Below the pieces are notes generated by a model. It did not search any database. It saw only the letters and a program-made list of their open reading frames with translations, and was not told where the DNA came from. Both the position numbers and the translations under genes were made by a program. A stretch of DNA of 25,044 nt from a virus (taxonomy: Duplodnaviria; Heunggongvirae; Uroviricota; Caudoviricetes): the IMG/VR virus record IMGVR_UViG_2529293240_000020, positions 1-25,044 of that record. One strand, written 5' to 3'. Positions 4,441-22,803 of this stretch are shown here, piece after piece. The first letter of the stretch is position 1, and each line of letters begins with the position of its first letter.

Positions 4441-4441
4441 G

Positions 4442-6283: not shown

Positions 6284-6468
6284 TATTTTTTCCCTCTGGT
6301 TTTGTTGTTATTTTTCGGAAGTGTGGTTATTTCCACATCTCCCTCGGCTTCACGGCGCAGCCAGTAAGCGCAGACGTTGAGACGTTCCCCTTCCGGGGAT
6401 AAATGTGCGCCATCCGGTTTACGGACACGGACGTTTTCCCGCGCTGGCTTAATCAGTTTCTGTTCCAT
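6283..6468 (-). CDS. Small Mu-like phage protein preceding the sheath gene (about 61 aa from ATG 6468; alternative ATG at 6483)
   Basis: Conserved small ORF position between neck genes and sheath; stop overlaps the sheath start. Confidence 0.4.
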   Translation of the reverse strand: MEQKLIKPARENVRVRKPDGAHLSPEGERLNVCAYWLRREAEGDVEITTLPKNNNKTRGKK

Positions 6469-7060: not shown

Positions 7061-7602
7061 GGCAGAACCTCCTTCCAGAAATGACTGATAACCTGTTGCA
7101 GCTCCTGCTGGCTGGCAGAAGACAGCCCCAGAAATTCACGTTGCGGAATGTTCATCATGCGGTGATGTGCGCCGACGGTCTGCCAGACCGGATATTTCAG
7201 CGCCCGCCCGAAACACTGCGAGATAAGCCGTTTGTGGGCGCTGACCGGCACGCTGCCGGAAAAGCCGTCATTCATGATGCGGGCATAATCCAGCGGTGAA
7301 CCGATACGCACCACGCGGTTTTCCACGATGTACTGGATACTCTCCAGCAGATGGCCTTCACCGCGCAGCAGACTCTGGTTGCCGTGGCGGGTCTTTTTGT
7401 ACCCGTCAGACCAGTCCGGCCAGCGTTCGCCACCCGGACTGGTTTTCTCATCGATGATGCGGCGGCGGGTCTGTGATTCCACCACCGCACCGATGCTTTC
7501 CAGCAGCTCTGACTGCAATGAACCCTCTGCCAGCTTTTCAACGGCGCGGCGGATATCCTCCAGACGCTGGTCACCGCTGACCTGTACAGAAATCCCCATC
7601 AC
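7057..7602 (-). CDS. Phage virion morphogenesis (tail completion) protein, Mu G-like family, 181 aa
   Basis: Sequence character and position; ATGA-type overlap with the upstream gene. Confidence 0.5.
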   Translation of the reverse strand: MMGISVQVSGDQRLEDIRRAVEKLAEGSLQSELLESIGAVVESQTRRRIIDEKTSPGGERWPDWSDGYKKTRHGNQSLLRGEGHLLESIQYIVENRVVRIGSPLDYARIMNDGFSGSVPVSAHKRLISQCFGRALKYPVWQTVGAHHRMMNIPQREFLGLSSASQQELQQVISHFWKEVLP

Positions 7603-8036
7603 AGCACCCCTTTCAGGTTGTTACGGGTGAACAGCCGGGCATTGGCACCCACCACAATAATTTTCCCGTTGTCGGTTTCTGCCGGGGTGGCATACGTCGG
7701 CAGGCCCAGGTCACGGGTGCCGTTCGCCATTTCACGCAGGGTTTTAATGGCGTCGTCGTAGCGTTTCTGGATCAGCTCCGTGATTTGATTGTCACGCTCT
7801 GATAACCAGTAAAACGCCAGCGATACCGCCACGCGTTGCAGCGGGCGCGGGATTTCCGTCACCCCCAGCGGCAGCTGGTAGCGGCGGGACAGAAACGAAT
7901 CAATTTCCGCTTCCGCATCACTGATGGCCTGACGGATTTTGTCTTCATCCAGCCCGTTGGTTTCCCGGTTAATCGCCATGTTCCAGACAAGATTGCCGTC
8001 CGCGCGTAACAGATCTTCCTGCGTGATGTATCCCAT
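7599..8036 (-). CDS. Mu gp36-like head-tail connector protein, 145 aa
   Basis: Position downstream of the major head gene in a Mu-type order; overlapping start/stop. Confidence 0.5.
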   Translation of the reverse strand: MGYITQEDLLRADGNLVWNMAINRETNGLDEDKIRQAISDAEAEIDSFLSRRYQLPLGVTEIPRPLQRVAVSLAFYWLSERDNQITELIQKRYDDAIKTLREMANGTRDLGLPTYATPAETDNGKIIVVGANARLFTRNNLKGVL

Positions 8037-8347
8037 CAGCCTTTCTCCGCTTCCCGGACAATCAGATTCGGCTCTGCCATCAGGCGGGTGGCAACCGCAG
8101 CGCTCACCGCCACATCCTCACCGATATGTGACCAGAAACGGCCACAGCGCCAGAACCCGTTTTCAGACACGGCCCTGACGTTCAGCCGGACAGGGACGTC
8201 ACCCTGTACAGCAACCGGGTCTTCAGCCGGACGTGGTTCATTCGCCTGACCGTCAGCCACAATAACGTCTGCCAGCGGTGCCGGGTTTTCCTGTGCAGCG
8301 CTGTTCTTTGCGGCTTTCGCGCCTTTGGTTTCTGCTTTTTCACTCAT
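8036..8347 (-). CDS. Mu-like phage protein (FluMu N-terminal-domain-like), Ala/Pro-rich N-terminus, 103 aa
   Basis: Small ORF directly after the major head gene, typical of Mu-like head modules. Confidence 0.45.
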   Translation of the reverse strand: MSEKAETKGAKAAKNSAAQENPAPLADVIVADGQANEPRPAEDPVAVQGDVPVRLNVRAVSENGFWRCGRFWSHIGEDVAVSAAVATRLMAEPNLIVREAEKG

Positions 8348-8418
8348 GACTCTGCCTTTTAAAAGGCAGTTAAAAGGGCATTCACAGCACCTTTTAACTG
8401 CGGTTTACGGATGACGGG
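8348..8418 (-). promoter_or_regulatory. Structured intergenic region after the major head gene: perfect 18-bp palindrome CTGCCTTTTAAAAGGCAG (8351..8368) and a 9-bp-stem hairpin GTTAAAAGG-N12-CCTTTTAAC (8368..8397)
   Basis: Inverted repeats read directly from the sequence; an mRNA stem-loop after the capsid gene is a common phage arrangement. Confidence 0.35.
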
Positions 8419-9324
8419 TTATGCCGGGGGGGTGATGTACGGGCTGTCCACGATCTCCACATCCTTGTACCAGATGTTGGAATCGCCGCCGTTAACCAGC
8501 ATGGCGTCAATAATGAGCTTCGCGTCCGCACGGTTTTTCGGCCCCACCACAAGGGTGGTCGGGCGGATGCCCAGCGGCTCACCGTTGGTGCCCTTCATGC
8601 CCCGCAGCAACTCATTGGCTTTTTTGTAGTTCTCCACCGTCAGTGCTGCACGGGAACCGACGGCGGTCTGCCAGAAGCCGAAGCCCGCATTACAGCGACC
8701 GTCCACGCCGTACAGGAACTCGTGGTTCTTGAAGGTGTGCTCGCTGTTCAGATCGTCCAGGGCTTCAAACTTAAAGGCGCGTCGCGTCTGCCAGATGATG
8801 GGTTTCAGCACCTGCGACTCATCAATCAGGAACCACGGTTCGCCCTTGTCTGATGCCGGGGTGCCGACAACGTTGCTGTACGTACCGTCACCCAGCGGGT
8901 GGTCTTCATCAAAGAAGTTCTGGCCGTCAAAGCACAGGGTGTTAAAACCGGCACACAACAGGGCGTAACACAGCTTGTCCGGGAACACAGCAGTCATACG
9001 GCCATAGCGTTCGGCGGTAATGCTGTACTGACCAATCTGGTCATCTTCAATGTGTTCACGCTTAACGCGAATGGAACTTTCCCAGAGTTTGTTGGTGATG
9101 GTGTAACCATAACCGTCCAGCGTTGCCAGCTGACGCTCACCGACCCATTCTTTGATGTCCGGTAAATCTTTCATCCAGCCGTAAGTGTTGGAGGCGGACG
9201 AACTCGGCACCTCAGAAGCAATACGATTCCACTGCGGTTCGACACCACTCAGTCCACGGGTAAAGGCGGCGCTCAGGCAGGTGGTCAGTGCATGAAGGAT
9301 TTCAGAACTGATAGTCTGTGACAT
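8419..9324 (-). CDS. Major head (capsid) subunit, Mu gpT-like, 301 aa
   Basis: Length and sequence typical of Mu-like major head subunits; position after the protease/scaffold gene. Confidence 0.8.
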   Translation of the reverse strand: MSQTISSEILHALTTCLSAAFTRGLSGVEPQWNRIASEVPSSSASNTYGWMKDLPDIKEWVGERQLATLDGYGYTITNKLWESSIRVKREHIEDDQIGQYSITAERYGRMTAVFPDKLCYALLCAGFNTLCFDGQNFFDEDHPLGDGTYSNVVGTPASDKGEPWFLIDESQVLKPIIWQTRRAFKFEALDDLNSEHTFKNHEFLYGVDGRCNAGFGFWQTAVGSRAALTVENYKKANELLRGMKGTNGEPLGIRPTTLVVGPKNRADAKLIIDAMLVNGGDSNIWYKDVEIVDSPYITPPA

Positions 9325-9331
9325 GTGTTAC

Positions 9332-10288
9332 TTACTCCTGTTTCGGTTTAGCGGCGAGGAACTCTTCCCCGGTAATACCCATGCTGCGACACATCGCCAG
9401 TTCGGCATCGGTCAGTGTCTGCGCGGGTTTATCCTTGCCCTGGCTGGGCTTGTCGTTGTTAACCAGCGGCTGTGCACCTTTGGTGTACTCCGCAAACTGT
9501 TTGCGGCCTTCTTCCGTGCGGCAGGTGGCAAGGAACATGTCACGGTTTGCCGGGGCGACTTTTCCGGCCCCGATGGCCGCATCCACAAGCGCCTCGGCTT
9601 CCTTCTCTTCCAGTTGCTGAAGGCGTTTTTCTGCGGTTTCGGCACGGTTCAGTGCCAAATTGTGGGTTTCCACCGGCACAAACTTCGTCAGGTCAGGTGT
9701 CTGTGCGCGGTTCAGCGCCACCTGTTCGTTCTCCTGAAGTTGTTTAATGGCGGCCACGGTATCGTCCACCGTGGCGGATTCAGCCAGCCCAAGCAGGCCG
9801 GTGATTTGCACAGGTACTGTCATCGGGTTTTTCTCCGTATTCAGTGCAGGAAAATCCAGGTTAGGTTTGTTGGTCAGCCCGACGCTGGACAGGCGCGTCA
9901 CCGCACCGTCTGCGTCATGGAAAAACGCCGGGCTGTAATAGCGGTAGCGGCGCTCGCTCAGCATCCACCGGGCGGACTCACTCCAGACAACACGCCCTTC
10001 AATGGTGCCGCTGTCCGTCACCCGCAGTGCTTCCACCCAGCCATACGCCGGAGCCTCTTCACCCCGCGGGCCTTTAATTTCGGTGGCATGTTCAATGTCC
10101 ACCGGAATGTTGATGTCGGACGAACGGGCAACCACCTCATGTGGATTGCGGTTCATCCACGTCCGGCCATCGCGCCCGGTGAACTCACCCGCAGGAACGA
10201 GTTCAAGCCATTCCGGCAGTTGAGCGGGTGTCAGCTCAGGGATGGGTTCTGGCAGGGAAAAACACAGCGCCAGCAGTTCCGGTTGCAT
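9332..10288 (-). CDS. Head maturation protease / scaffold protein, Mu gpI-like, 318 aa
   Basis: Protease-like N-terminal half and coiled-coil, charged scaffold-like C-terminal half (EKRLQQLEEKEAEALV...); GGAG SD 9 nt upstream of ATG 10288. Confidence 0.7.
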   Translation of the reverse strand: MQPELLALCFSLPEPIPELTPAQLPEWLELVPAGEFTGRDGRTWMNRNPHEVVARSSDINIPVDIEHATEIKGPRGEEAPAYGWVEALRVTDSGTIEGRVVWSESARWMLSERRYRYYSPAFFHDADGAVTRLSSVGLTNKPNLDFPALNTEKNPMTVPVQITGLLGLAESATVDDTVAAIKQLQENEQVALNRAQTPDLTKFVPVETHNLALNRAETAEKRLQQLEEKEAEALVDAAIGAGKVAPANRDMFLATCRTEEGRKQFAEYTKGAQPLVNNDKPSQGKDKPAQTLTDAELAMCRSMGITGEEFLAAKPKQE

Positions 10289-10331
10289 GTCAGTCTCCGT
10301 CGTCTGGGGTTACCGACGGTCAGTATGCGGA

Positions 10332-10367
10332 AGGCAGAAAAAAAGCCGGATTTACCGGCTTCACTGA
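10332..10367 (-). promoter_or_regulatory. Copy B of a ~35-bp repeated dyad element (AAGCCGG-ATTTA-CCGGCTT hairpin plus T-run on the minus strand), 50 nt upstream of the protease gene start
   Basis: Near-identical to 17871..17906 (two substitutions and one A-run length difference); minus-strand RNA would fold as a 7-bp stem, 5-nt loop, followed by UUUUUU. Confidence 0.45.
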
Positions 10368-10502
10368 AAACGGGGAAATACCCCCTTCAAAACCCCTTCA
10401 AAAACGCCACGGACGCTTCAAAAAAGCCAGGGTGTACATTCATGCCATCAGAATAAAAAACGCGTTTCTGATGCGTTTCAGGGGCATTTACGGCGGGGAG
10501 GG

Positions 10503-11255
10503 TTATTCACTGTTAAAACGGGCCTGTCTGGCCGCCAGCTCCTGCTCACGGTTTATGCCGGGATTGTAGTTCCAGCCCGGATCAATCCCTTCCGGCACCT
10601 CTTCCTCTTCGCCCGTACGTTTGTTCACCCAGCGGACAGTTCTGATTTCCGGCGCTTCGGTGTGAATGGTGCCCTGTGCCGCCAGTTGCGCATACTCACC
10701 ACGGCTGACCTGACGGATGGTGCATTTGCAGCCCCAGCCGTTAGGGGCAAAATGCGTCTGCCAGAACGGATGCTCTACCGGCAGACACAGACGCGCCCAT
10801 TTCACATGCTCCACCCGGTGCTCACGGGATGGCCCCAGCTCGTACATCAGATACGGCATGGCCTGCTTTGTCCGCTGAATGCGTTCCCACTGGCCCGCCG
10901 CGCGGGCGGTGCGCATGTTGGTATCAAAAATCGTGCGGAGGCGGCGGTCGCTGCCCAGTTGCACGGTGCGGGTTTCACCCGTCAGCGGATCATCCATCTC
11001 CTGTACGCCCCACCATCCGCGTTTTATCAGCAACGGTTGCAGCATCTCCCGGAACTCGCTGAACGTCTGCCCGCTTTGCAGGGCGTCTTCCACAAGGGCT
11101 TTCACATCCGACAACAAATCCAGTTGCAGCATTCTGGCCACGGGGAAGCTGTACCGGTGCTCTTCCCGCCACACATCCCGGTAATCAAAACCGGGACGCA
11201 GCTTCTTCGCCTTCAGCCACGCCAGCGCCTCTTTCGGGATGAGGGTTTCACGCAT
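10503..11255 (-). CDS. Head morphogenesis protein, Mu gpF-like, ~250 aa from ATG at 11255
   Basis: Position after the portal gene; ATG at 11255 overlaps the portal stop by 8 nt (the track ORF extends to 11312). Confidence 0.65.
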   Translation of the reverse strand: MRETLIPKEALAWLKAKKLRPGFDYRDVWREEHRYSFPVARMLQLDLLSDVKALVEDALQSGQTFSEFREMLQPLLIKRGWWGVQEMDDPLTGETRTVQLGSDRRLRTIFDTNMRTARAAGQWERIQRTKQAMPYLMYELGPSREHRVEHVKWARLCLPVEHPFWQTHFAPNGWGCKCTIRQVSRGEYAQLAAQGTIHTEAPEIRTVRWVNKRTGEEEEVPEGIDPGWNYNPGINREQELAARQARFNSE

Positions 11256-12819
11256 GAGCAGTGTCTCCCAGCGCACGCGCCTTAAAGCACACCTCCGCCA
11301 GTTGCAGGGCAAAGTCGTCCGCGTTCAGCGTTTCCTGAAGCTCAGGCAGGCGTTTCAGAAAGTCATCAAAACTGTCGCACTCCTGCGCCAGTGTCAGCAC
11401 CGGGTTCGTGAACGCCTCGCCGGTTTTCTGCCAGTCACGCAGGGCATCATCCACCATCTGTGCCAGTTCGTCGGGGTGTTCCCTGTTCAGGGCGACGCGC
11501 TCGCGGTTCATCGCCATATCACCCGGCATCCCGGCAGACACCGGATGCAGAACATCAGCCCCTTCGTCTGGCTCAGCCAGGCCGAACCGGTCCCGCAGCG
11601 CCGACTCCTGAACCCGCATCCCCCGGTCAATCAGCGCCACCAGAGCATCTGTCAGCGCCTTCAGATCTTCGGCTTCACTGATACGCAGAACAACACGGGG
11701 GTAGTGCGCCTGTGGCCCGTAGTTGGCCTCGATGTAGGGCCGCACCAGATATTCATTCAGCGTGTTAGCCAGCTGCCGCGCGTCCCAGCGCACAATGTCC
11801 ATGCGCACCTGATTGTGCACGTCCGCCTGTGAACGCGAACTGCCGTTATCCGTGGTCATGGTCTGCCCCAGCACAGCCTTACTGATTTGCGCATCACACC
11901 ATTCCGCCATTTCACGGAACAGTGCGCCGCCGTTATTCCGGCTGGCGGTTTCCTGCATCTCCAGTTGCATGGACTGCGGAATGGCACACCCGGCATCCGA
12001 GGCAATGGAGGCAATCGCATCAATCAGTACGCGGATTTGCTCCTCCGTGGCGTTGGGACCGTATTTCCCCACCGTGACCGGAATGCCGAATTTTTCCGCG
12101 AATGCCCACCAGTCACGCACGGTAAAGGATTTCAGCATGTACATTACCGCCACCAGACGGGCCAGACCGTTACGCAGCGGCAGACCGGATTTCAGGCGCG
12201 GCTGGTGAACAATGAATTTTCCCGGTGTCAGTGGTACACCATCCACCGGTTCATCATCCGTCAGCAGGCGGAACTGGCGCAGTGTGGGCTTTTCGGCTTT
12301 CAGAAAACGGGGATCAACCCACTCATAATCACGGGGCACCCAGTGATTGTTACGGGTGTTCCACAGAATTTCACAGACCGCCACGCCTTTTCCCAGCCCG
12401 TCGAGCAGATCAAACATCAGCTCGGGGATTTGCGGGGCTTCCATCAGCGCACGGATGGCGTCCGCCAGCTGCACGTCAGCATCGTCATCACTGGCCGCCA
12501 CCACCACCGGTTCGATACCCGCCACCGTCAGCTTGCGGGTGCGCAGTACCGAGGCGTAATGCAAATCGCGTTCTTCCATCTCTTCAGCAAGGATAAAAAA
12601 ATCACGCGTGATACCGTCGGCGGCATTGCGCAGAATACCGGCCAGTCTGCCGGGATTCAGCCCGGAGGCGATGCTGATGCCCGGAGAGGCCGGACGCACA
12701 CCCGCCTGACGCGGACGGGCCTGTACTTCATCGAGCCTCTCTTTTTTCAGCGTGTCTTCCTCACCGGTTGCCGGGTTCAGCAGACGGCGAACGGCCCCGG
12801 CCAGTTGTTTCAGGTTCAC
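11248..12819 (-). CDS. Portal protein, Mu gp29-like, 523 aa
   Basis: Size and position immediately after the large terminase gene with ATGA-type overlap. Confidence 0.8.
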   Translation of the reverse strand: MNLKQLAGAVRRLLNPATGEEDTLKKERLDEVQARPRQAGVRPASPGISIASGLNPGRLAGILRNAADGITRDFFILAEEMEERDLHYASVLRTRKLTVAGIEPVVVAASDDDADVQLADAIRALMEAPQIPELMFDLLDGLGKGVAVCEILWNTRNNHWVPRDYEWVDPRFLKAEKPTLRQFRLLTDDEPVDGVPLTPGKFIVHQPRLKSGLPLRNGLARLVAVMYMLKSFTVRDWWAFAEKFGIPVTVGKYGPNATEEQIRVLIDAIASIASDAGCAIPQSMQLEMQETASRNNGGALFREMAEWCDAQISKAVLGQTMTTDNGSSRSQADVHNQVRMDIVRWDARQLANTLNEYLVRPYIEANYGPQAHYPRVVLRISEAEDLKALTDALVALIDRGMRVQESALRDRFGLAEPDEGADVLHPVSAGMPGDMAMNRERVALNREHPDELAQMVDDALRDWQKTGEAFTNPVLTLAQECDSFDDFLKRLPELQETLNADDFALQLAEVCFKARALGDTAHA

Positions 12820-14351
12820 AGTAAACCTCCCTCATTTTTCAGGCCACGCGTCAGCTTCATCTGGCGGCGTGCGTTGCGCTCTTCCGGTTTCGCCGGGCGG
12901 TTCAGGCGGTGCAGCTCGTAACGGTGGCAGTCATCTTTACTGGCAAGGAAGCCCAGGAAAATAGCCACAGCGGCGTCGCCGTGACGCTTGCGGCCATCGC
13001 TGCCTTTAGTACGGGCATCGTCAATACCGGGAACGCCACGCAGTAACTGAATGGCCCCGAGGTCATTGATCACGTCTTCATGCTTCGGAAGGATCAGCTC
13101 ATCATCTTCAAACGCCGCACGGAAACGGGGCATGTTTTCGCGGTAGAACGCCACGGACAGCATCACCTGTTCCACCTCGTCGCCGTATCGTTCTGCCGCC
13201 TGTTCTGCCAGATACTGACCATTACCCCGCGCATCCATTTTGATACCGTCACGACGGGGCAGACGATCGCAAAGCCAGAACAGCACCTGCTCCTGCTGTT
13301 TAAACGGCACATTGGCAAGCTCAACCAGAAACGGCACCTCGCGGGTGGTGTCGTCGTTCACCGTCACCGGGGCCAGCACGGTCAGGTCACCCGAACGCGC
13401 AAAGTCTTCCCCCAGACAGTGGCGCAGATTCTTCGGGAGTTTTTCCAGCTCGGGGCGCACCACCGTTTCCAGCCATTCCCGGATATCTGCCCGGCGCTGA
13501 CTTTCCGTCAGTGCGTTAAATTCCGGTGTGCCGGTAAAGCGCAAGACTTTCCCGGTGCCACGGGCCGCACGTTCACGCAGTGAGCGGGGGATATACGTGC
13601 CGCCGCCGTTTTTCGGGACGCAGTAATATTCCTCCAGCGCATCTTCGCGGGTGGCGGTATTTCGCAGCAGGCCTTCTTTCCATTCGGCCTCGGCTTCCGG
13701 TGACCACACCATGCCGCGCACCTGACAGATACGCCGGTACAGCCCGTCATTGCAGGCATCATCCAGCGTGATGGTGTGAATACGGTAATCTTTTTTGCCT
13801 GCGCGGCTTTCCTGAATCAGCTGGTTAAACGGGTTGTCCACGCCGTCATGGGTGGAGATAAGGCGAACCTTACCGCCCCACGTGGTCAGTGGTGTGACCG
13901 CTTTGAGTACCTCATCCAGCTTTTCATGAAACGCCGCTTCGTCGATGGTGACATTCCCCTGCATCCCGCGAATGTTGCCCGGATTACTGGACAGCGCCTT
14001 GACCTTAAATCCGCTGGCGAAGTACACGACGAACGTCAGAATGTCCTTGTCTTCGTCGGTGATCACTTCCTCGCGGATTTCTTCCGCGGCTGCATTAAAC
14101 GCTTTTGCCCACATCGCCACGGCGTCGATAAATTCGCGGGCCATCTCCTTATTCGAACCGATGTAAAAGTGATCGCATCCGCCGTTTTCCTTCTTCAGTG
14201 ATGCGGTCAGTGCCGCATCTGCCGCTTCCGCCCAGGTTAAACCGGTACGGCGGGATTTTTCGGCGATTTTCAGTTTTGAATCATCCGCCACCCAGCGTTT
14301 CTGATACGGCAGCAGAACATCGGATTCACTGAATGCGTTCATCTGTGTCAT
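12816..14351 (-). CDS. Terminase large subunit, Mu gp28-like, 511 aa
   Basis: Size, ATPase-like N-terminal region and acidic nuclease-like C-terminal region, position upstream of the portal gene. Confidence 0.8.
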   Translation of the reverse strand: MTQMNAFSESDVLLPYQKRWVADDSKLKIAEKSRRTGLTWAEAADAALTASLKKENGGCDHFYIGSNKEMAREFIDAVAMWAKAFNAAAEEIREEVITDEDKDILTFVVYFASGFKVKALSSNPGNIRGMQGNVTIDEAAFHEKLDEVLKAVTPLTTWGGKVRLISTHDGVDNPFNQLIQESRAGKKDYRIHTITLDDACNDGLYRRICQVRGMVWSPEAEAEWKEGLLRNTATREDALEEYYCVPKNGGGTYIPRSLRERAARGTGKVLRFTGTPEFNALTESQRRADIREWLETVVRPELEKLPKNLRHCLGEDFARSGDLTVLAPVTVNDDTTREVPFLVELANVPFKQQEQVLFWLCDRLPRRDGIKMDARGNGQYLAEQAAERYGDEVEQVMLSVAFYRENMPRFRAAFEDDELILPKHEDVINDLGAIQLLRGVPGIDDARTKGSDGRKRHGDAAVAIFLGFLASKDDCHRYELHRLNRPAKPEERNARRQMKLTRGLKNEGGLL

Positions 14352-14929
14352 ACACTAATCCCCAGAATTTCACGTTTGATGGTGTCAGCCGCACCGCCTG
14401 ACAGACCGCCCGCTCTGACCAGCTCTTCGGTTTTCTCTGCCATTTCCTGCGCAAACGCATCGCGGATTGCTTTTTCGCGTTTATGGCTGGTCATGGCTGC
14501 CGCTTCCAGACGCTGGGCAACCAACGCCAGTTGCCCCAGCGCCTTCGGTGCAACAGGTTTGTCGTCTTCTGTCATCGACATGGACGTTTCAAAGGCCAGC
14601 GTTTTTACAAACTCCATCAGCAGCCTGCCGACATCTAACGTCGGCGCGGAACCCAGCTTTGCCGCCCAGACTTCGGCCATTTCGCGGGAGGCGCGGATTT
14701 TTGCCCCGACTTTTTCCATGCGGCTGGCATAGCGGTTTAAGCCCGTCCGGCTTAACTGCATCCCCCCCGGCAGGTTATGTTCGTCAATCAGGGCATTGAT
14801 GGCTTCGCGGATTTCTTCCTGCGTGTGCCGCTTTTCCCGCAGCATCTGGTGTAACTGCTCACGGATGCTGTCCGGGAGTAAATCCACTTTGGAAAGACGG
14901 CCACGGGTGGGGCGTTGTTCATTTTCCAT
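14348..14929 (-). CDS. Putative small terminase / DNA-binding protein, Mu gp27-like, 193 aa
   Basis: Immediately upstream of and overlapping the large terminase gene; charged helical protein. Confidence 0.5.
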   Translation of the reverse strand: MENEQRPTRGRLSKVDLLPDSIREQLHQMLREKRHTQEEIREAINALIDEHNLPGGMQLSRTGLNRYASRMEKVGAKIRASREMAEVWAAKLGSAPTLDVGRLLMEFVKTLAFETSMSMTEDDKPVAPKALGQLALVAQRLEAAAMTSHKREKAIRDAFAQEMAEKTEELVRAGGLSGGAADTIKREILGISV

Positions 14930-15206
14930 CTTCTGTCCTCTGTGTTTTCAGACCGGCGTATATTTCTTCACGAACGGACTGAATATCCTTACCCAGCAGC
15001 TTCCACAGCCGCGCATATGCCGGTGATGAACGCAGGGCACGTTTCACGGGGGTATCCGGTGCATCCGGGTTCCAGGGCTTTCCGGTCTGTTGTTCGTATG
15101 TACGGACAATGGCGTTTTGCTCGATATCTGCCAGCACAAGGCAGTACGCCAGCTGCCGCACGACGGCCCGTTCTCCACGACTTAACGGCTTCAGTTTTCG
15201 GGCCAT
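14919..15206 (-). CDS. Hypothetical phage protein, 95 aa, basic
   Basis: ORF with ATG start, overlaps the downstream gene start by 11 nt, same-strand operon context. Confidence 0.4.
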   Translation of the reverse strand: MARKLKPLSRGERAVVRQLAYCLVLADIEQNAIVRTYEQQTGKPWNPDAPDTPVKRALRSSPAYARLWKLLGKDIQSVREEIYAGLKTQRTEDGK

Positions 15207-15208
15207 GT

Positions 15209-15502
15209 TCAGTCCCTCGCACGGGGTTTTTTAACGCCCGGCACACCGGACAGGCCGTTTGCCACATCCTCGCCGCTGCCGGTGATTTCAGCCACGTAAC
15301 AGCCGCCCACATCAGACAGACGAACCAGCCCCTGCTCGCGCAGCCATGCAAGCTGGGTGCGCACCACATCACGGGATACCTTATGACCGTAGGCCTGAAG
15401 GCAGGTCTGCAACACGGATTCATTCGCGCTGTCGCCACAGTCCAGCAGGGAACGCAGCAACACCAGACGACGGTCTTCAGTGAGGATCTCTTTCATCGCC
15501 AT
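15209..15502 (-). CDS. Hypothetical phage protein, 97 aa, possible winged-helix DNA-binding fold
   Basis: ORF in operon context; ATG at 15502 or 15496. Confidence 0.4.
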   Translation of the reverse strand: MAMKEILTEDRRLVLLRSLLDCGDSANESVLQTCLQAYGHKVSRDVVRTQLAWLREQGLVRLSDVGGCYVAEITGSGEDVANGLSGVPGVKKPRARD

Positions 15503-15806
15503 TAATTTTTTCCTTTAATTCGTTCTCTAATAACAAATCGCTGATGCGGGATACCTGGCGGATGGATGGCCCCAGCTCTTTGATTTCACCCCGCAGGTTG
15601 CTGATATCCAGTTGCAGGCGGTGAAATTCATTGCGGTCGGGTAGCTGATTCACCAGGCCTTCCATCACCGACACGCGGGAACGCAGCGAATCAAACTCTT
15701 CGCGTTTGACGTAAGTCTTCGCCAGAATCAACTGGAGAAAGTTAATCCCCGTCATCAGCAATGCCCACAGAATGGGCCAGTTGGCTCTGATCACTTCCCA
15801 GGACAC
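15477..15806 (-). CDS. Membrane protein with N-terminal transmembrane helix (WPILWALLMTGINFLQLIL) and coiled coil; possible lysis accessory protein (Mu gp25/releasin-like or i-spanin-like). Start ambiguous: GTG 15806 or GTG 15794, the latter forming a GTGA overlap with the traR-like stop
   Basis: Hydrophobic N-terminus followed by a heptad-like charged region; position in the lysis cassette. Confidence 0.4.
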   Translation of the reverse strand: MSWEVIRANWPILWALLMTGINFLQLILAKTYVKREEFDSLRSRVSVMEGLVNQLPDRNEFHRLQLDISNLRGEIKELGPSIRQVSRISDLLLENELKEKINGDERDPH

Positions 15807-16018
15807 GTTTTCCTCCTGCGCTCCCGCGCCTGCTGACAGTCAATACAGGTCACCACATCAGGCAGTGCCGCAAGGCGCTGTGCCGGAATAACGTTCCCGC
15901 AGTCATTGCAGAAGCCCCGACTGTGGGGTGCTTCTTTTATCCGCATCAGCCAGGCGTTAACGACGTCCTGACGTTCGTTTAAAACCACTTCACTGATGCG
16001 GTCGGTTTCATCGGTCAT
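15791..16018 (-). CDS. TraR/DksA-family C4 zinc-finger protein, 75 aa
   Basis: CNDCGNVIP...(17 aa)...CIDCQ four-cysteine motif and size typical of phage TraR-like proteins; ATGA overlap with the upstream gene. Confidence 0.7.
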   Translation of the reverse strand: MTDETDRISEVVLNERQDVVNAWLMRIKEAPHSRGFCNDCGNVIPAQRLAALPDVVTCIDCQQARERRRKTCPGK

Positions 16019-16623
16019 TTCGGCCCCGCTGATATTTTGTGACAGCTCGATTTGCTGTAACGGGCAAAGCCGTCAAGGGTTCTTACCCCGAGATAGCCCA
16101 GCGCCGGGGTAAACAACATCAGCGTGATATCCCAGTCCGGTGACGGCATATGCAGCGTGATACCGTTCGCACCGGCAACCGCACCGGCAATCTGGCCACA
16201 GGAGAGCAACAGCACATAGGCCAGACTGCTGTAACAGGACAGACGGGCCAGCAACGGGCGCGTCTGGCGCACATAGCTGTCCGTGGCGTTGTCACCGTTG
16301 CGGATGGTTTCCTGTTGTTCGTGGTGAGCGGCCTGCTGGTCAGCCAGCACCAGCTTCTGCCGCTCCACCTCCAGCTGTTGCAGCTGGACTTTCAGGGTTT
16401 CCAGCTGCACCAGTTGCTCCGGTGACAGCATCACCAGTTTTTGTTCCAGAATGCGTTGCTGTTCAGCCACCGGCAGGCTTTCCCGGACGCTTTCCACCAT
16501 ACCGGCCACCGAGTCAGCGGCGGCAGATGTGCTGCCACCAAACCAGCGCCCGACGGAACGAATCAGCCCCGGCCCGGCTTTCAGCAGAACGGAGGCGATG
16601 CCTGAAAGGGTTAACGGGTCCAT
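16015..16623 (-). CDS. Phage membrane protein, 202 aa: soluble coiled-coil N-terminal region and hydrophobic C-terminal segments; possible holin-like or lysis-associated protein
   Basis: Hydrophobic stretches LSCYSSLAYVLLLSCGQIAGAVAGA and ITLMLFTPALGYLGV; position downstream of the endolysin gene. Confidence 0.45.
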   Translation of the reverse strand: MDPLTLSGIASVLLKAGPGLIRSVGRWFGGSTSAAADSVAGMVESVRESLPVAEQQRILEQKLVMLSPEQLVQLETLKVQLQQLEVERQKLVLADQQAAHHEQQETIRNGDNATDSYVRQTRPLLARLSCYSSLAYVLLLSCGQIAGAVAGANGITLHMPSPDWDITLMLFTPALGYLGVRTLDGFARYSKSSCHKISAGPK

Positions 16624-17021
16624 GAATCCCCCTTATGAAAACGGCGCTGATGTTTATAAAGTGCCGCACAAAAGATACCGCCCAGCCAGAACGCCAGCTG
16701 ATAAGGCTCCTTCAGATAAAGAAGGCCGAATGTCAGCATGAAAAAACCAACGGCCCAGACCACCCATGACCACACGACAATTCGAAGGGAGGCGGCCCGG
16801 AAACGCCTTTTGGGTTGCAGGCGATAAGGTACGTTGCCCAGCTGGAAACTGTGAATCAGGCAGAGTGTCGCGCCGTATGCCAGCACCATGACCGCAAACG
16901 CCCGCCATCCGGCAAAACAGCTCGCCAGAAAAAGTACTGCCGACAGCCCCAGAAACGACCACTGGCACAACATAAAGCGGGAGTAAATAACGCGAACAAA
17001 AAGACTATTCATTCTGTGCAT
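16611..17021 (-). CDS. Integral membrane protein with four predicted transmembrane segments, ~136 aa from ATG 17021; holin candidate
   Basis: Four hydrophobic helices; the likely start overlaps the stop of the upstream small ORF. Confidence 0.45.
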   Translation of the reverse strand: MHRMNSLFVRVIYSRFMLCQWSFLGLSAVLFLASCFAGWRAFAVMVLAYGATLCLIHSFQLGNVPYRLQPKRRFRAASLRIVVWSWVVWAVGFFMLTFGLLYLKEPYQLAFWLGGIFCAALYKHQRRFHKGDSWTR

Positions 17022-17232
17022 TGAGTTTTTCCTTGTACTTCTGGCACTGCCAGAAAATGTCCCGTGTATCCACGGTGTTCCAGCCACGCATGTAGTAGCT
17101 GGCGTGTGTGCCGTCATGGCCGGTATAGTCCAGCGGTTTCGGAGGCGGACCTCCGGCCATACGGTGCAGAACCTCCTGACGCAGGCGGTCGCGTCGCCCG
17201 GCTTTCAGTGAGGCATCCCAGCCTTTGCCCAT
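17005..17232 (-). CDS. Hypothetical small phage protein, 75 aa, no transmembrane segment
   Basis: ATG one nucleotide after the endolysin stop (TGA-T-ATG); operon context. Confidence 0.4.
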   Translation of the reverse strand: MGKGWDASLKAGRRDRLRQEVLHRMAGGPPPKPLDYTGHDGTHASYYMRGWNTVDTRDIFWQCQKYKEKLNAQNE

Positions 17233-17233
17233 A

Positions 17234-17821
17234 TCACCCCCGCGTGGCGGACGGCGCGTTGTCGATGATTTCCAGACAGGCGTCGGTCAGTTCTTCCATG
17301 CGGTTAAACCATCCGTTCAGGTATTTGCCCTGGGCGGGTTTTGATTTGATGATGTCGGCATAAAAGCGGGAACGACGGACAATACAGCGGGTCAGCAACC
17401 AGTCCGGGTTAGACAGGTTCACGGCCCTGCGGGTACGCGGGCCGATGATGCCGTCAGCATCCACATCAGCGGCTTCCTGCAAAATTCTGATGGCTTTTTT
17501 AACGCCATGCTGAACCGCCGCATCGAACACAAACAGCGCTACACCATCAGGCCACTGCTCACACCCGGCTGGCAGCCAGTAATCGCGCCAGTAAATCTGC
17601 GCAGCCTGTTCGCGGGTCAAATCTTTGATGCGGGTATCCGGTTTGCCGTCTCCGTTGACGTCGGTTTTGCCGTCAATCACACCGTCGCGGCGGTCAGAAA
17701 TGCCGTATCTGGTTTCGCCGCCACGGTCAGTGGGGTCATTGACATAGACGCCTTCGATATCGGGACGCAGAATAAAATTCAGCGCATACTCAAAGGCCGG
17801 GGAGAATTTTTGATTTTCCAT
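17234..17821 (-). CDS. Endolysin: glycoside hydrolase family 108-type lysozyme domain with C-terminal peptidoglycan-binding domain, 195 aa; no N-terminal signal-anchor
   Basis: Motifs EGVYVNDPTDRGGETRYGI, REQAAQIYWRDYW and DGIIGPRTRRAV are characteristic of GH108 plus PG-binding endolysins. Confidence 0.75.
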   Translation of the reverse strand: MENQKFSPAFEYALNFILRPDIEGVYVNDPTDRGGETRYGISDRRDGVIDGKTDVNGDGKPDTRIKDLTREQAAQIYWRDYWLPAGCEQWPDGVALFVFDAAVQHGVKKAIRILQEAADVDADGIIGPRTRRAVNLSNPDWLLTRCIVRRSRFYADIIKSKPAQGKYLNGWFNRMEELTDACLEIIDNAPSATRG

Positions 17822-17833
17822 AAAAGCACCTGT

Positions 17834-17860
17834 GAAGCAGATTTAAACGTGGTCTGCTTC
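17834..17860 (-). promoter_or_regulatory. Perfect 8-bp inverted repeat GAAGCAGA-N11-TCTGCTTC, 13 to 39 nt upstream of the endolysin start codon
   Basis: Read directly from the sequence; lies in the presumed 5-prime UTR or operator region of the lys operon. Confidence 0.3.
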
Positions 17861-17870
17861 ATGGTGCCGG

Positions 17871-17906
17871 AGGCATAAAAAAAGCCGGATTTACCGGCTT
17901 CATTGA
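17871..17906 (-). promoter_or_regulatory. Copy A of the ~35-bp repeated dyad element (hairpin AAGCCGG-N5-CCGGCTT plus T-run on the minus strand), beginning 6 nt after the Mor/C-like stop codon
   Basis: Near-identical to 10332..10367; has the structure of a Rho-independent terminator for the minus strand and sits at the distance from the lys start expected for an activator site. Confidence 0.5.
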
Positions 17907-18356
17907 TTAAGGACGTCGTGGCGGACGACGAACGGGGTGAGGCAGGTTCGGGGAGTGGTAAAACAAATCCGGCTGGTATTTATTACACTCCAGACGCCGC
18001 ATCCGCTTGATGGCCTTGTAGACGGTTTTATACGTCACCCCGTAACGCTGAACCAGTTCAGGAATATTATGGCCGTTAAAATCACGCCAGATACGCATAT
18101 CCCGGACAAGATTCTCCAGAATATTCCCCCTCGGAACATAAACCTGCATCCCGCCGATATAGCGACAAATCGCCACAACCAGCTCAAGGGAATGGGCAGG
18201 GTCTGCGCCAATCCTGGCCAGCTCTTTACGCAGCAGTGCGTTCAGTTCAGAAAGTAACGCCGGATAAGCCGTGTTTTCCTGGTAATCGTTAAGGTATTCC
18301 AGAACGCTGTCGTCCCGGAAGTCTTCGAATAAATCCTGCTCTTTCATCTGTTTCAT
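17907..18356 (-). CDS. Mor/C-family transcriptional activator (Mu middle/late gene activator family), 149 aa
   Basis: C-terminal HTH-like region (IPELVQRYGVTYKTVYKAIKR) and size typical of Mu Mor/C proteins; position between the gemA-like gene and the late genes. Confidence 0.7.
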   Translation of the reverse strand: MKQMKEQDLFEDFRDDSVLEYLNDYQENTAYPALLSELNALLRKELARIGADPAHSLELVVAICRYIGGMQVYVPRGNILENLVRDMRIWRDFNGHNIPELVQRYGVTYKTVYKAIKRMRRLECNKYQPDLFYHSPNLPHPVRRPPRRP

Positions 18357-18904
18357 ACAGCAATTCTCCCGCTGTTTCGTGCGCGGGCATACGCACTGGT
18401 CAGTGCATCATAGCCGCGCAGCTCCTGCCCGGTTTCGCTCACAGGTAAAGGCACACCATGTCGGGCAAAGGCTTCACGGATGCAGCGCATATGCCACTGT
18501 TTGAGCGTTTCGAGCACAACCTGCAACGATTCCCCGTGACACCAGGCCAGCGTGGAAACACCCTGACCGCCATTACGTCTGGCTGTCAGGCGTTCAACGT
18601 ATTTGTCCAGCGCAGCGTCGCTGATATCGGAGACGAAACCATCAAGGAACATCTGCTGCCAGATTTTATAAATCTTCTCGCGCGGTGTGACATGCCCCTT
18701 AAAGCGACGGCGGGGATGTTTTTTCTGCTTCTTAAAACCGCGCTCTTTCATGGCATCGAGCACACGTTCCAGTTGTGCAACGGAAAGCTCGCGGCAACTG
18801 GTTTTGCCCGTGCACTGCACCAGAAAGGTGCGGTAAGTGTCATCGTCGAGTTGCAGGTCACGACGGGCAACATGAATTAATTTAATCAGGGATGTGCAGC
18901 TCAT
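18353..18904 (-). CDS. Mu gp16/GemA-like regulatory protein, 183 aa
   Basis: Sequence character (LIKLIHVARRDLQLDDDTYRTFL...GKTSCRELS) and position immediately upstream of the Mor-like gene with ATGA overlap, as in Mu. Confidence 0.55.
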   Translation of the reverse strand: MSCTSLIKLIHVARRDLQLDDDTYRTFLVQCTGKTSCRELSVAQLERVLDAMKERGFKKQKKHPRRRFKGHVTPREKIYKIWQQMFLDGFVSDISDAALDKYVERLTARRNGGQGVSTLAWCHGESLQVVLETLKQWHMRCIREAFARHGVPLPVSETGQELRGYDALTSAYARARNSGRIAV

Positions 18905-19217
18905 TATGTCCCCCCGGATTTAAAATTAATTCGGTGTTGAATAGCTCTTTACTCATTCGATGTAGCACATCGAGGGCGGCAACTGCCGCTACTTTATCCT
19001 GGCTGGCAATGATTTTTCGTAATTCCTCAATAATCCAGGCTGGACTTAATGATTCGGCAATCATCGTGCGTTTTTCTGAAATTAAATTTTCTCTGGCCTG
19101 CTCATAGCGTTGGTATACGACATTATCCAGAAAATCATTTACCTTTTGTTCTGACATGCCACTGGAAATTAAGGTTGCAGCCATTAAATCAGCATCAGTA
19201 ATCATCTGTATTTTCAT
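18882..19217 (-). CDS. Hypothetical early-region protein, 111 aa, AT-rich
   Basis: ATG at 19217; its first 23 nt overlap the reconstructed stop of the IS911-disrupted gene; its end overlaps the gemA-like start. Confidence 0.45.
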   Translation of the reverse strand: MKIQMITDADLMAATLISSGMSEQKVNDFLDNVVYQRYEQARENLISEKRTMIAESLSPAWIIEELRKIIASQDKVAAVAALDVLHRMSKELFNTELILNPGGHNELHIPD

Positions 19218-19301: not shown

Positions 19302-19373
19302 TGAAGTGGCACACTGAATTTGGCCACCTGAACAGAGGTGATATGCTCACCTCAGAACAACACAGGTGCTCCA

Positions 19374-20542
<1,169 letters not shown>

Positions 20543-20550: not shown

Positions 20551-20809
20551 CAGCCAGGCAATCACCGTTGTAGCAGGCATTGTCGATAACGCTTTTTATT
20601 ATTCTTATCAGCGATGGCAGTGTGGTGTTTTCCAGAATTTCCAGCCTGAACTGCTTCAGCCAGTATTCATATTCAGCTTCATCAAATGGACGCTCACCCA
20701 TCAGTTCCGTCAGTGTTGCATCGGCCTGCTCTGGCGTATATCCACTGACAACCAGTTGCGCCCGCATTTCAGCCCGATATTTCGGGTCGTCATAAATACG
20801 TTTACTCAT
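20551..20809 (-). pseudogene. 5-prime fragment (86 codons) of the early gene disrupted by IS911; the remaining 24 codons of track ORF 20477..20809 are read from the IS911 end
   Basis: ATG at 20809 overlaps the upstream stop (ATGAGTAA); the frame runs into the IS terminal repeat at 20550. Confidence 0.5.
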
Positions 20810-20984
20810 TTCTTAATGCATCCTCACAATAAAAGATTTCACCGGGATAACGTTTTTGTATGCGCTCCATCACCTGCATACATGCCTGCTCTGTGGGCCA
20901 GATTTTTTCTGTTACAGGTATGGCATCGCAGGCATCATTCCCACAGGTGCCAACCAGCAGGACAAAGCCAATTGACTTAATCAT
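20802..20984 (-). CDS. Small exported protein, 60 aa: N-terminal signal peptide (MIKSIGFVLLVGTCG, possible lipobox) and four cysteines
   Basis: ATG at 20984 overlaps the upstream stop (ATGATTAA); hydrophobic N-terminus followed by Cys. Confidence 0.45.
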   Translation of the reverse strand: MIKSIGFVLLVGTCGNDACDAIPVTEKIWPTEQACMQVMERIQKRYPGEIFYCEDALRNE

Positions 20985-21516
20985 GCCCGCTGATTTCCTG
21001 TGTTTCCGCCGGAACCGGTGAATAATCAAGAATGAGATAGCGCAGGACGTGGTCGGTGATATTCCAGCCACTGGAGCCACAAATAAAACGACCCAGCCGG
21101 ATATCGATATACGCCATCACAAAACGGGGCATTCCCTGTTTGCACATCTCGTCATCCACTTCAGCAACGATGTAAACCGGCTCGCAGGTCAGTACGCCTG
21201 TCGCAAATTCTTTTGCCAGTGCCGGAATGGCGTTACCTTCCAGCCAGGGCAAAGAACGACGGAACGTGCACCATGCAGCATCATCAACCCCTGGCAGCTC
21301 CGTTGTGTTTCGCCTTACAGGTGACGTCAGACGAGGGCGCGGAACGTCATAAAATCCGTTGCATTCGGTGAGCACTCCGGCATCAACCGCATCACGCAGG
21401 AAATACACCATTGACGAGGGCAGCATATTCATTTTTTCAGCCAGAACCCCGCAGGTCAGACGCCCGTAAGCCCGTAATAATGTGCTGACACCGTTCAGAA
21501 CTTTTGCATCAATCAC
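20977..21516 (-). CDS. Hypothetical protein, 179 aa, GTG start with GGAGG Shine-Dalgarno 8 nt upstream
   Basis: GTG at 21516 lies 3 nt after the upstream TAA; the SD is embedded in the last codons of the upstream gene. Confidence 0.5.
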   Translation of the reverse strand: MIDAKVLNGVSTLLRAYGRLTCGVLAEKMNMLPSSMVYFLRDAVDAGVLTECNGFYDVPRPRLTSPVRRNTTELPGVDDAAWCTFRRSLPWLEGNAIPALAKEFATGVLTCEPVYIVAEVDDEMCKQGMPRFVMAYIDIRLGRFICGSSGWNITDHVLRYLILDYSPVPAETQEISGHD

Positions 21517-21519
21517 CGG

Positions 21520-22068
21520 TTATTCCTCCGTCAGTGCCACAAATTCAGAATGTTTAATGCGCTGGCATTCGGCAGGAACCGGTCCCTTAACCTCACCATC
21601 CAGCAGGCACACCTCAAACAAAATGCCGAATCCGTCACGGCTGTGGTGCATCGTCCAGACTGATTTGAGATCAAACATGTTGGGTACAACATCAACCCCG
21701 AGTTCATTACACAACCAGACCGGGAATGTGGGATATTTCCGGAGTTGCTCTTCATGTTCCTGAATAAGCGTCGCATTGTTTCGGCCTTCCGGTGTTGTTA
21801 TATCCGGTACAACGCCATAAAACTGAAATCCACCAATAAACAGTCCGTCTGATTTACCACGCCATAATTCCGGCGCTAATTGATTCATCCAGATACATTC
21901 AACCCGTTCATACCCTCTGTTACTGACAAGGGAAACACCGTCTGCGCCAAACGCACGCTGCAATGAGCAGATGATTTTGTCACGCTTAACAGAAACATCT
22001 TTCAGCCAGCGAATCGTATAACCGTTAGCGGCTGCGTCACTCAGTTTAAAATAAGCATATGCTTTCAT
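21520..22068 (-). CDS. Hypothetical protein, 182 aa (MKAYAYFKLSDAAANGYTIRW...)
   Basis: ATG at 22068 with GAGG 8 nt upstream; the track ORF extends to 22125 but those ATGs lack a comparable SD. Confidence 0.5.
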   Translation of the reverse strand: MKAYAYFKLSDAAANGYTIRWLKDVSVKRDKIICSLQRAFGADGVSLVSNRGYERVECIWMNQLAPELWRGKSDGLFIGGFQFYGVVPDITTPEGRNNATLIQEHEEQLRKYPTFPVWLCNELGVDVVPNMFDLKSVWTMHHSRDGFGILFEVCLLDGEVKGPVPAECQRIKHSEFVALTEE

Positions 22069-22299
22069 ATTCATTTCCTCTGGTCCTGATTCAGGCGCGA
22101 GCAATCCCCTGACGCATCGCGCCATAATTAAAAGAAAGTGAATTAATTAAATATTCGTCGTGGTATTAAATACCGGCTTCCTGTTCAAACGGAATAATAG
22201 AAAAATCTTCAATGCCTGATTTAACTGTAATTCCGGCGACACCTGCGACTGCTTTCGGCTCCAGTAAAATCGCTTCCTTGTTGAGGTAATGACTCCAAC

Positions 22300-22803
22300 T
22301 TACTGATAGTGTTTTATGTTCAGATAATGCCCGATGACCTTGTCATGCAGCTCCACCGATTTTGAGAACGACAGTGACTTCCGTCCCAGCCTTGCCAGAT
22401 GTTGCCTCAGATTCAGATTATGTCGCTCAATGCGCTGAGTGTAACGCTTGCTGATAACGTGCAGCTTTCCCTTCAGGCGTGATTCATACAGCGGCCAGCC
22501 ATCCGTCATCCATACCACGACCTCAAAGGCCGACAGCAGGCTCAGAAGACGCTCCAGTGTGGCCAGAGTGCGTTCACCGAAGACGTGCGCCACAACCGTC
22601 CTCCGTATCCTGTCATACGCGTAAAACAGCCAGCGCTGACGTGATTTAGCACCGACGTAGCCCCAATGTTCGTCCATTTCAGCGCAGACAATCACATCAC
22701 TGCCCGGTTGTATGCGCGAGGTTACCGACTGCGGCCTGAGTTTTTTAAGTGACGTAAAACCGTGTTGAGGCCAACGCCCATAATGCGTGCACTGGCGCGA
22801 CAT
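22300..22803 (-). CDS. insB: IS1 InsB (transposase catalytic part, made as an InsAB-prime fusion by frameshift)
   Basis: Sequence characteristic of IS1 InsB (...[28 protein letters not shown]...). Confidence 0.8.

Follow-up and report, generated by a model that had tools for sequence, protein, structure and literature searches.

A Mu-type late operon of Escherichia coli with a GH108 endolysin, a candidate PF11351-family holin and no recognisable spanin

Layout and origin of the cassette

The window analysed here is the whole stretch of 25,044 nucleotides (nt) of the virus record IMGVR_UViG_2529293240_000020 (IMG/VR; Caudoviricetes). It carries a cluster of genes, here called the cassette, that runs from an endolysin gene to a small terminase gene. 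Among the products are a 202-amino-acid (aa) protein (p202), a protein with four predicted transmembrane (TM) segments, and a member of the DUF2730 family, to which the releasin of phage Mu belongs. In a Mu-like (transposable) prophage of Escherichia coli, this interval makes up the promoter-proximal end of the late operon. The account that we regard as probable is a Mor-driven late operon of the Mu type, in which p202 would act as the holin for a predicted cytoplasmic GH108 muramidase, the DUF2730 and four-TM proteins would be modulators, and no spanin is encoded.

Every gene of the interval lies on the minus strand, and the genes are tightly packed (Table 1). From the endolysin gene to the large terminase gene, seven of nine junctions are overlaps of 4 to 26 nt, and the remaining two are spaced by 1–2 nt. 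The open reading frames (ORFs) are where the original prediction, made from the sequence alone, had placed them. When compared with an E. coli relative of 94.7% identity, all nine ORFs at 14348–17821 have ratios of nonsynonymous to synonymous substitution rates (dN/dS) of 0.05–0.29, so they are real genes under purifying selection.

The 4-kb region recurs as chromosomal segments of 93–97% identity in about 50 of 5426 complete E. coli genomes. In E. coli VL40, the surrounding Mu-like prophage is complete, spans about 34 kb, and also encodes a repressor, a transposase, a Mu B-like AAA ATPase, Gam, gp16, a single Mor-family protein, head and contractile-tail proteins, and Com/Mom. The core order (endolysin, gp18-like protein, p202 homologue, TraR, DUF2730, gp26-like protein, small terminase) is common to the window, the Vibrio 1.028.O group, Vibrio ZX4290, Shewanella MuM16-2, and Klebsiella Kp4866-3. 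Given this recurrence among Mu-like phages and E. coli genomes, the earlier description of the cassette as atypical in composition was overstated. It is an ordinary, conserved Mu-type module of known families, with no exotic assembly. An Rfam scan of the window gave no match in the cassette, only the transfer-messenger RNA (tmRNA) at the far end, and the cassette's unassigned proteins had no match among the PADLOC defence models.

The last gene before the cassette encodes a Mor-family activator and is the sole Mor/C-family gene of this phage type (one is annotated in the VL40 prophage). A terminator scan places an intrinsic terminator hairpin, AAGCCGGTnAATCCGGCTTTTTTTA, in the gap between the mor and endolysin genes, and conserved counterparts of it occur in Mu, Yersinia phage YpM_5, and Klebsiella phage Kp4866-3. 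The gap is homologous to that between mor and E18, the gene for gp18, in Mu. There, the early terminator shares the gap with the middle promoter, which depends on Mor. The primer 'Mu Pm nt9163' (PMC9239132) agrees with a middle promoter at this place. No sigma-70 consensus promoter was found within 14200–18500, and the cassette is presumably driven by a Mor-dependent promoter in the gap.

Table 1. Features of the cassette, its flanks, and the remainder of the window
Feature	Position	Strand	Evidence or remark
Mor-family transcription activator	17907-18356	-	Pfam Mor E = 4.3e-30; phrog_532
Intergenic region, mor/endolysin gap	17822-17906	-	contains terminator hairpin 17881-17901
Endolysin, GH108 + PG_binding_3	17234-17821	-	Pfam Glyco_hydro_108 E = 2.9e-23, PG_binding_3 E = 3.3e-18; phrog_315 (endolysin)
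gp18-like soluble protein, 75 aa	17005-17232	-	phrog_2121, positions 3-75
Four-TM protein, 136 aa	16611-17021	-	phrog_12596 E = 3.9e-53
202-aa protein (p202), holin candidate	16015-16623	-	phrog_1544; weak PF11351
TraR/DksA C4 zinc-finger protein	15791-16018	-	Pfam zf-dskA_traR E = 7.9e-12; TIGR02419 E = 1e-15
DUF2730 protein, 109 aa	15477-15806	-	PF10805
gp26-like protein, 97 aa	15209-15502	-	NF050184 E = 2.2e-35
Basic protein, 95 aa	14919-15206	-	phrog_8988 E = 5.9e-43
Small terminase, Mu gp27 family	14348-14929	-	PF11985 E = 3.2e-54; phrog_426
Large terminase	12816-14351	-	ORF list; annotation in relatives
IS66 element	758-2359	+	breaks tape-measure gene
IS3-family element	2686-3946	-	breaks tape-measure gene
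IS3-family element	19338-20542	+	early region
IS1	22300-22803	-	where prophage left end is missing
P4-type tyrosine integrase, 413 aa	23197-24438	-	beyond IS1
tmRNA (ssrA), full-length	24643-25005	-	Rfam 295.8 bits

The endolysin, the holin candidate, and their neighbours

The endolysin joins a GH108 domain to a PG_binding_3 domain. It also aligns to the NCBIfam model 'holin-associated N-acetylmuramidase' at 74.8 bits, which is under the cut-off of that model. No 19-residue window of the protein attains a Kyte-Doolittle value of 1.4, and neither a hydrophobic N-terminus nor a signal-arrest-release (SAR) or signal segment was found. The enzyme is therefore without a membrane anchor and needs a holin, as had been reasoned in the original prediction. 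By the same token, an endolysin that has no SAR or signal segment cannot serve as a releasin substrate. Its sequence predicts a cytoplasmic GH108 muramidase.

The best holin candidate of the cassette is p202, a divergent member of the GTA_holin_3TM family (PF11351). The protein has a helical N-terminal part followed by two C-terminal hydrophobic segments, and its own match to PF11351 is weak (E = 0.0027; 18.7 bits against a gathering cut-off of 24.8). A HMMER scan of 1.84 billion representative proteins recovered 135 relatives, 80 of which were aligned at full length. Among these diverse homologues, PF11351 is matched by 35 of the 80 at E <= 0.01 and by 13 at E <= 5e-5, with a best E-value of 8.4e-9, and no other family is hit by two or more of them. 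The AlphaFold2 (AF2) model of p202 built from this alignment is all-helical, with a long helix at residues 68–111 (predicted local distance difference test score 91.4; predicted template modelling score 0.71). In BFVD, the model's first-ranked match is 'Holin of 3TMs, for gene-transfer release' (E = 1.2e-7, probability 1.00), and an entry of the same name stands at rank 4. A fold search of the PDB returned nothing below E = 1, leaving no solved structure for comparison.

The genomic context of p202 homologues points the same way. In Vibrio phage LP.1, the homologue directly follows a GH108 endolysin, and in Janthinobacterium phage Donnerlittchen it directly follows an LD-endopeptidase and also matches phrog_3427 'holin'. 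The p202 gene is two genes downstream of the endolysin gene in the window and one gene away in the Mu-like phages of Vibrio and Shewanella, whose cassettes have only the p202 homologue and the DUF2730 protein as conserved membrane proteins. Within the wider family, rcc00556 of the gene transfer agent RcGTA is required for release of the agent in Rhodobacter (PMC5026251). TeaA of phage ICP1, placed by its authors in the same holin family, collapses the proton motive force and is triggered by dinitrophenol (10.1101/790493). The alignment of TeaA to the p202 family profile is limited to the N-terminal part (hhalign probability 75%).

Two charge-free segments, at about residues 128–148 and 164–180, are conserved throughout the p202 family. 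Arginines that are invariant or nearly so (119, 122, 127, and 181) border them, and an acidic loop lies between the two. Under the positive-inside rule, this conserved charge pattern indicates a C-terminal membrane hairpin, which would leave the N-terminal helical domain of about 120 residues and the basic C-terminal tail in the cytoplasm. A third TM segment is doubtful, as the N-terminal helix is amphipathic-looking and contains a conserved arginine.

Two further observations concern the p202 gene. An in-frame GTG lies at the conserved 'YVRxTRP' motif (16015–16272, minus strand), from which an 85-aa product would consist of the two-helix hairpin only and have the size of a classical class II holin; this GTG has no convincing Shine-Dalgarno sequence. 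In addition, the 284 positions of the phrog_2121 profile cover both the gp18-like protein (3–89) and the holin-like protein (89–281). Fused or mis-joined versions of the two may therefore exist, though none was found among the 135 representative p202 homologues.

The four-TM protein is possibly an accessory inner-membrane protein that modulates the holin. Three or four hydrophobic segments alternate with basic loops. The reading frame is open as far as 17117, and the Prokaryotic Genome Annotation Pipeline (PGAP) gives 136 aa in relatives. Only 13 homologues were detected. The gene is confined to enterobacterial versions, being absent from the Vibrio and Shewanella cassettes, and its product evolves fastest of the cassette, with 32% identity between E. 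coli and Klebsiella. It coincides with a local AT skew of +0.40 (plus strand) at 16501–17000, as against about -0.2 to +0.1 elsewhere, with normal GC content. This spike arises because the sense strand of the gene is T-rich, hydrophobic codons having U at the second position.

It is unlikely that this four-TM protein is the real holin and that p202 has a regulatory or other role. Certainly, no other protein of the cassette is as hydrophobic, and its four TM segments are flanked by charges. Its gene sits between those for the endolysin and p202, with a start that overlaps the upstream gene, and Mu gp19, its positional counterpart, was proposed as a holin by Samanta et al. (cited in PMC9239132). 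However, gp19 showed no holin behaviour and was dispensable for lysis (PMC9239132), and the four-TM gene is missing from plaque-forming Vibrio and Shewanella phages that have the rest of the cassette. The protein matches no holin family in Pfam, PHROGs, or NCBIfam, and the multi-TM gene beside the PF11351-type holin in ICP1 is an antiholin (10.1101/790493).

The comparison with gp19 itself goes no further than position. The four-TM gene follows a gp18 homologue, as gene 19 follows gene 18 in Mu, and the two proteins are of similar size and have an F[AC]GWRA[FL] motif in common. Nevertheless, hhalign gave a probability of 12%, and a search with gp19 led to six close relatives and no bridge, so homology was rejected. 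A likeness to the ICP1 antiholin ArrA was likewise dismissed, no similarity having been found.

The DUF2730 protein matches PF10805 at E = 5.5e-29 and 100.7 bits (cut-off 24.9), its residues 4–98 aligning with profile positions 1–102, and is 27% identical to Mu gp25 (BLASTP, E = 1.6e-9). Mu gp25, the prototype releasin, frees the membrane-bound SAR endolysin of Mu (Chamblee et al. 2022, PMC9239132). Members of the family are N-out/C-in and are encoded no more than five genes from the endolysin gene (PMC9239132). Many are paired with non-SAR endolysins, including the GH108 enzymes of Vibrio Mu-like phages (PMC9239132, Table S1). In the window, the gene is the fifth downstream of the endolysin gene, which is within the five-gene criterion of that study. 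The TM segment at residues 10–30 has one Lys or Arg before it and five in the following 15 residues. This charge bias predicts an N-out/C-in topology with a cytoplasmic helical domain, which excludes the protein as an inner-membrane spanin subunit (i-spanin). An earlier suggestion that this TM-plus-coiled-coil protein might be releasin-like or spanin-like thus survives in its first half, through PF10805 and Mu gp25, and fails in its second.

A releasin would have a cognate SAR endolysin, and the enzyme of this cassette has no such segment. The protein is a member of the DUF2730 family and not a releasin in the functional sense; it probably acts at the inner-membrane step. That it alone lets the endolysin reach the wall, in a lysis without holin as in Mu, is very improbable. 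The family match is clear and the family replaces holin control in Mu, but releasins work on exported, membrane-tethered SAR endolysins, and Mu gp25 has no holin-like lethality (PMC9239132).

On the account proposed here, the gp18-like, TraR-like, gp26-like, and 95-aa proteins would be products of backbone or accessory genes and not envelope-disrupting. The gp18-like protein is 68% identical to Mu gp18 (BLASTP, E = 1e-35), and in the Vibrio, Shewanella, and Klebsiella phages its gene has the same position, just upstream of that for the holin-like protein. The TraR-like protein is probably a regulator that binds RNA polymerase, not a lysis protein. It occupies the slot of Mu gp24, and a CxxC-N17-CxxC spacing is common to both; since Mu gp24 has no match to the Pfam zf-dskA_traR model, the link consists of position and cysteine spacing only, and homology is not claimed. 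The 97-aa protein is 61% identical to Mu gp26 (BLASTP, E = 5e-41) and is a winged-helix-like member of the VpaChn25_0724 family, not a membrane protein. The 95-aa gene is inserted between the gp26-like and small terminase genes and is lineage-specific, being absent from the cassettes of Mu, Vibrio, and Shewanella; like the four-TM gene, it is confined to enterobacterial versions and is an addition to the core. These last two proteins had been described as small and basic, which is true of the 95-aa protein (isoelectric point 9.9) and not of the 97-aa protein (6.6). The small terminase, 45% identical to Mu gp27 (E = 3e-48), marks the downstream boundary of the cassette.

Spanin search and proposed lysis pathway

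The cassette has no recognisable spanin. Strict and relaxed scans of all six frames, using simple lipobox rules, found no ORF in any frame of the cassette for a lipoprotein resembling an outer-membrane spanin subunit (o-spanin). Relaxed scans of the VL40 prophage, a full Vibrio phage genome, and the Klebsiella and Shewanella regions likewise gave no credible o-spanin, while the positive control, Mu gp23.1, was recovered. The inability to pick out an i-spanin/o-spanin pair by eye, reported in the original prediction, is confirmed by these scans. An i-spanin would have an N-in/C-out TM segment and a periplasmic coiled coil. The DUF2730 protein is predicted to be N-out/C-in, and the prediction for p202 puts its helical domain in the cytoplasm. 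Of the standard holin and spanin pair whose discovery would have left no membrane protein over, the holin family has come to light and the spanin has not, and the four-TM protein is left over.

Several individual candidates were discarded. The only strict lipobox match in the window, LASC at Cys35 of the four-TM protein, is immediately followed by a TM segment. Several close homologues have Phe in place of the cysteine, that of Klebsiella reads LLFC, and the lipobox was rejected. As the motif is not conserved and the TM segment follows directly, the protein does not have the features of a unimolecular spanin (u-spanin) of the T1 gp11 type either. A 58-aa ORF embedded in the p202 gene (16119–16295) is rich in Cys, Arg, and Pro, appears in the relaxed scan only, and has no proper lipobox. 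It was treated as an out-of-frame artefact of GC-rich DNA, and the equivalent scan in Klebsiella is empty. The gp18-like and 95-aa proteins were considered as spanin substitutes of the 'disruptin' type, and the former was set aside, since Mu has gp18 and still needs its spanin. Outside the cassette, the only lipoprotein-like gene of the phage type is a 60-aa ORF of the early region (20802–20984, minus strand; phrog_16556), which has an LLVGTC lipoprotein-like signal and four further cysteines and is frameshifted in E. coli VL40.

Signal-peptide proteins are encoded just upstream of the endolysin gene in Vibrio 1.028.O (1634–2086 of the retrieved stretch) and Shewanella MuM16-2 (1622–2071). In Vibrio ZX4290, a 190-aa lipoprotein (1207–1779 of the retrieved stretch) is encoded upstream of the late-activator gene that precedes the endolysin slot. 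At the corresponding position, the window has an 85-bp gap. These exported proteins might be outer-membrane-acting or exclusion factors.

There is only a small chance that a spanin was missed, whether because its lipobox is non-canonical, because the outer-membrane disruptor is not a lipoprotein, or because it is encoded elsewhere in the phage. The simplicity of the lipobox rules, the early ORF at 20802–20984, and the exported proteins or lipoprotein of the marine relatives could be taken in favour of this, and cationic 'disruptin'-type substitutes are known (cited in 10.1101/2024.01.23.576932). However, the scan does recover Mu gp23.1, and no credible spanin appeared in the complete relative prophage or the whole Vibrio phage genome. 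The early ORF has no i-spanin partner in addition to its frameshift in VL40, and gp18 cannot substitute, as the requirement for a spanin in Mu demonstrates (PMC9239132).

The proposed pathway, with p202 as holin, would run as follows. The GH108 muramidase would accumulate in the cytoplasm while p202 gathers in the inner membrane through its C-terminal hairpin. Permeabilisation at a set time would then allow the muramidase to reach the wall. The membrane-tethered DUF2730 protein, with its helical domain predicted to face the cytoplasm, would modulate this same inner-membrane step, and in enterobacterial relatives only, the four-TM protein would serve as an accessory modulator. With no spanin encoded, rupture of the outer membrane would be passive or would proceed through an unknown factor.

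A number of points weigh against this pathway. The p202 protein itself scores under the Pfam gathering threshold for PF11351, its Vibrio phage homologue has no Pfam match at all, and its second hydrophobic segment is weak (Kyte-Doolittle <1.4). Its holin activity is a prediction for which the experimental support comes from distant relatives only. No function is known for DUF2730 proteins alongside cytoplasmic endolysins (PMC9239132), and a remnant prophage such as this one may never express the cassette. Two further points concern position: in Donnerlittchen, a class III holin is already annotated upstream of the endolysin, with the p202 homologue in the spanin position, and in Mu it is the spanin genes that occupy the slot equivalent to p202.

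These positional points would fit p202 being a spanin replacement, acting in outer-membrane disruption or envelope fusion, with the inner-membrane hole made by another protein. The p202 gene stands where Mu has gp23/23.1, just upstream of the gp24-like gene, and the Donnerlittchen order of holin, endolysin, and p202 homologue is the usual one for a spanin. All examined p202-bearing phages lack an o-spanin, and the long helix of p202 would suit such a role. This alternative is nonetheless quite unlikely. The positive-inside pattern places the helical domain and the C-terminal tail in the cytoplasm and only about 15 residues in the periplasm, and p202 has neither a lipobox nor a signal peptide. 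Its relatives include proteins whose holin behaviour has experimental support, and a cytoplasmic endolysin would still need a holin, for which no other conserved protein is available.

The prophage in the window is a defective remnant, riddled with insertion sequence (IS) elements, in which the cassette is intact. Homology to the complete prophage is limited to 2392–2685, 3947–18907, and 20800–22284, and the window prophage is probably not inducible. At the far end, the remnant abuts an island in which ssrA is followed by a P4-type integrase gene, the usual arrangement of ssrA islands.

The significance of the cassette lies mainly in its pairing of a GH108 endolysin with a DUF2730 protein native to E. 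coli, which bears on the question left by Chamblee et al. (2022), namely the role of DUF2730 proteins in Mu-like phages with cytoplasmic endolysins. As about 1% of complete E. coli genomes carry complete copies, the function of DUF2730 proteins beside a holin becomes testable in a standard host, with a specific holin candidate named. Otherwise, the cassette is an ordinary prophage lysis module in a degraded prophage.

Comparison with known lysis systems

Close counterparts with the same core module are the Mu-like myophages of Vibrio (1.028.O group, ZX4290, and martha 12B12) and Shewanella (MuM16-2), and Klebsiella phage Kp4866-3; their p202 homologues are 41–72% identical. The marine phages differ from the window in having no four-TM or 95-aa gene and in encoding an exported protein or lipoprotein upstream of the endolysin. 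The endolysin slot of Vibrio ZX4290 is occupied by a DUF5675 protein instead of a GH108 enzyme.

More distant parallels are found outside the Mu-like phages. The rcc00555-rcc00556 pair of RcGTA in Rhodobacter capsulatus resembles the window in combining a GH108-type 'holin-associated' muramidase with a PF11351-family holin. ICP1 resembles it in having the multi-TM antiholin ArrA beside the holin TeaA, with a TM-plus-coiled-coil protein in the same cluster. In contrast to the window, neither the GTA locus nor ICP1 has a DUF2730 protein, and sequence similarity to both is remote. At 12725–14097 of ICP1 (NC_015157), the order is the TM-plus-coiled-coil protein ORF139, the multi-TM protein ORF138 (apparently ArrA, by position), and TeaA (ORF137). 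This cluster presents the three architectures of the DUF2730 protein, the four-TM protein, and p202, with detectable similarity between TeaA and p202 only. Like spanin-less phages of Gram-negative hosts, such as phiKT with its 'disruptin', the window has no i-/o-spanin or u-spanin in its lysis cassette; unlike phiKT, it has no identified candidate for a cationic amphipathic peptide.

Mu itself has homologues of gp18, gp25, gp26, and gp27 in the same order as the cassette, and the gp24-like and four-TM genes occupy its gp24 and gp19 slots. However, Mu has a SAR GH24 endolysin, the gp23/23.1 spanin, the second activator C, and no holin, whereas the window phage has a GH108 endolysin that is predicted to be cytoplasmic, a single activator, and no spanin, the spanin slot being occupied by a PF11351-type holin candidate. 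The gp18-like and four-TM genes lie downstream of the endolysin gene in the window, while genes 18 and 19 of Mu belong to a separate middle operon.

The Yersinia Muvirus vB_YpM_5 (MT374853) looks like an intermediate between these two types. Its order is mor, a GH108 + PG_binding_3 gene, gp18, gp20, C, SAR lysozyme, spanin, and gp24–27. This plaque-forming phage has two muralytic genes (1264–2047 and 2674–3562 of the retrieved stretch) and no gene 19; the GH108 gene and gp18 are in the middle operon, and a Mu-type SAR lysozyme and spanin are in the late operon. Relative to the cassette, Mu has a block of gene 20, C, SAR endolysin, and spanin at the place of the holin gene and has presumably lost the GH108 gene upstream of gene 18. 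Such a history would explain why Mu has genes 18 and 19, lysis-gene neighbours in its relatives, in its middle operon, and why it has a releasin without a holin.

A more speculative extension, which we consider rather doubtful, is that in this widespread, spanin-less branch of Mu-like phages the DUF2730 protein works with a true holin and a cytoplasmic endolysin, serving the PF11351-type holin as a timer or partner on the cytoplasmic side, perhaps joined by the gp18-like protein and, in enterobacteria, by the four-TM protein, and that this arrangement is ancestral and that of Mu derived. The original role of the 'releasin' would then have been holin control and not the release of SAR endolysins, Mu having exchanged its holin gene for the block that carries gene 20, activator C, SAR endolysin, and spanin. 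Independently of this extension, the cassette offers a simple comparative account of two features of Mu, its lack of a holin and the place of genes 18 and 19 in the middle operon.

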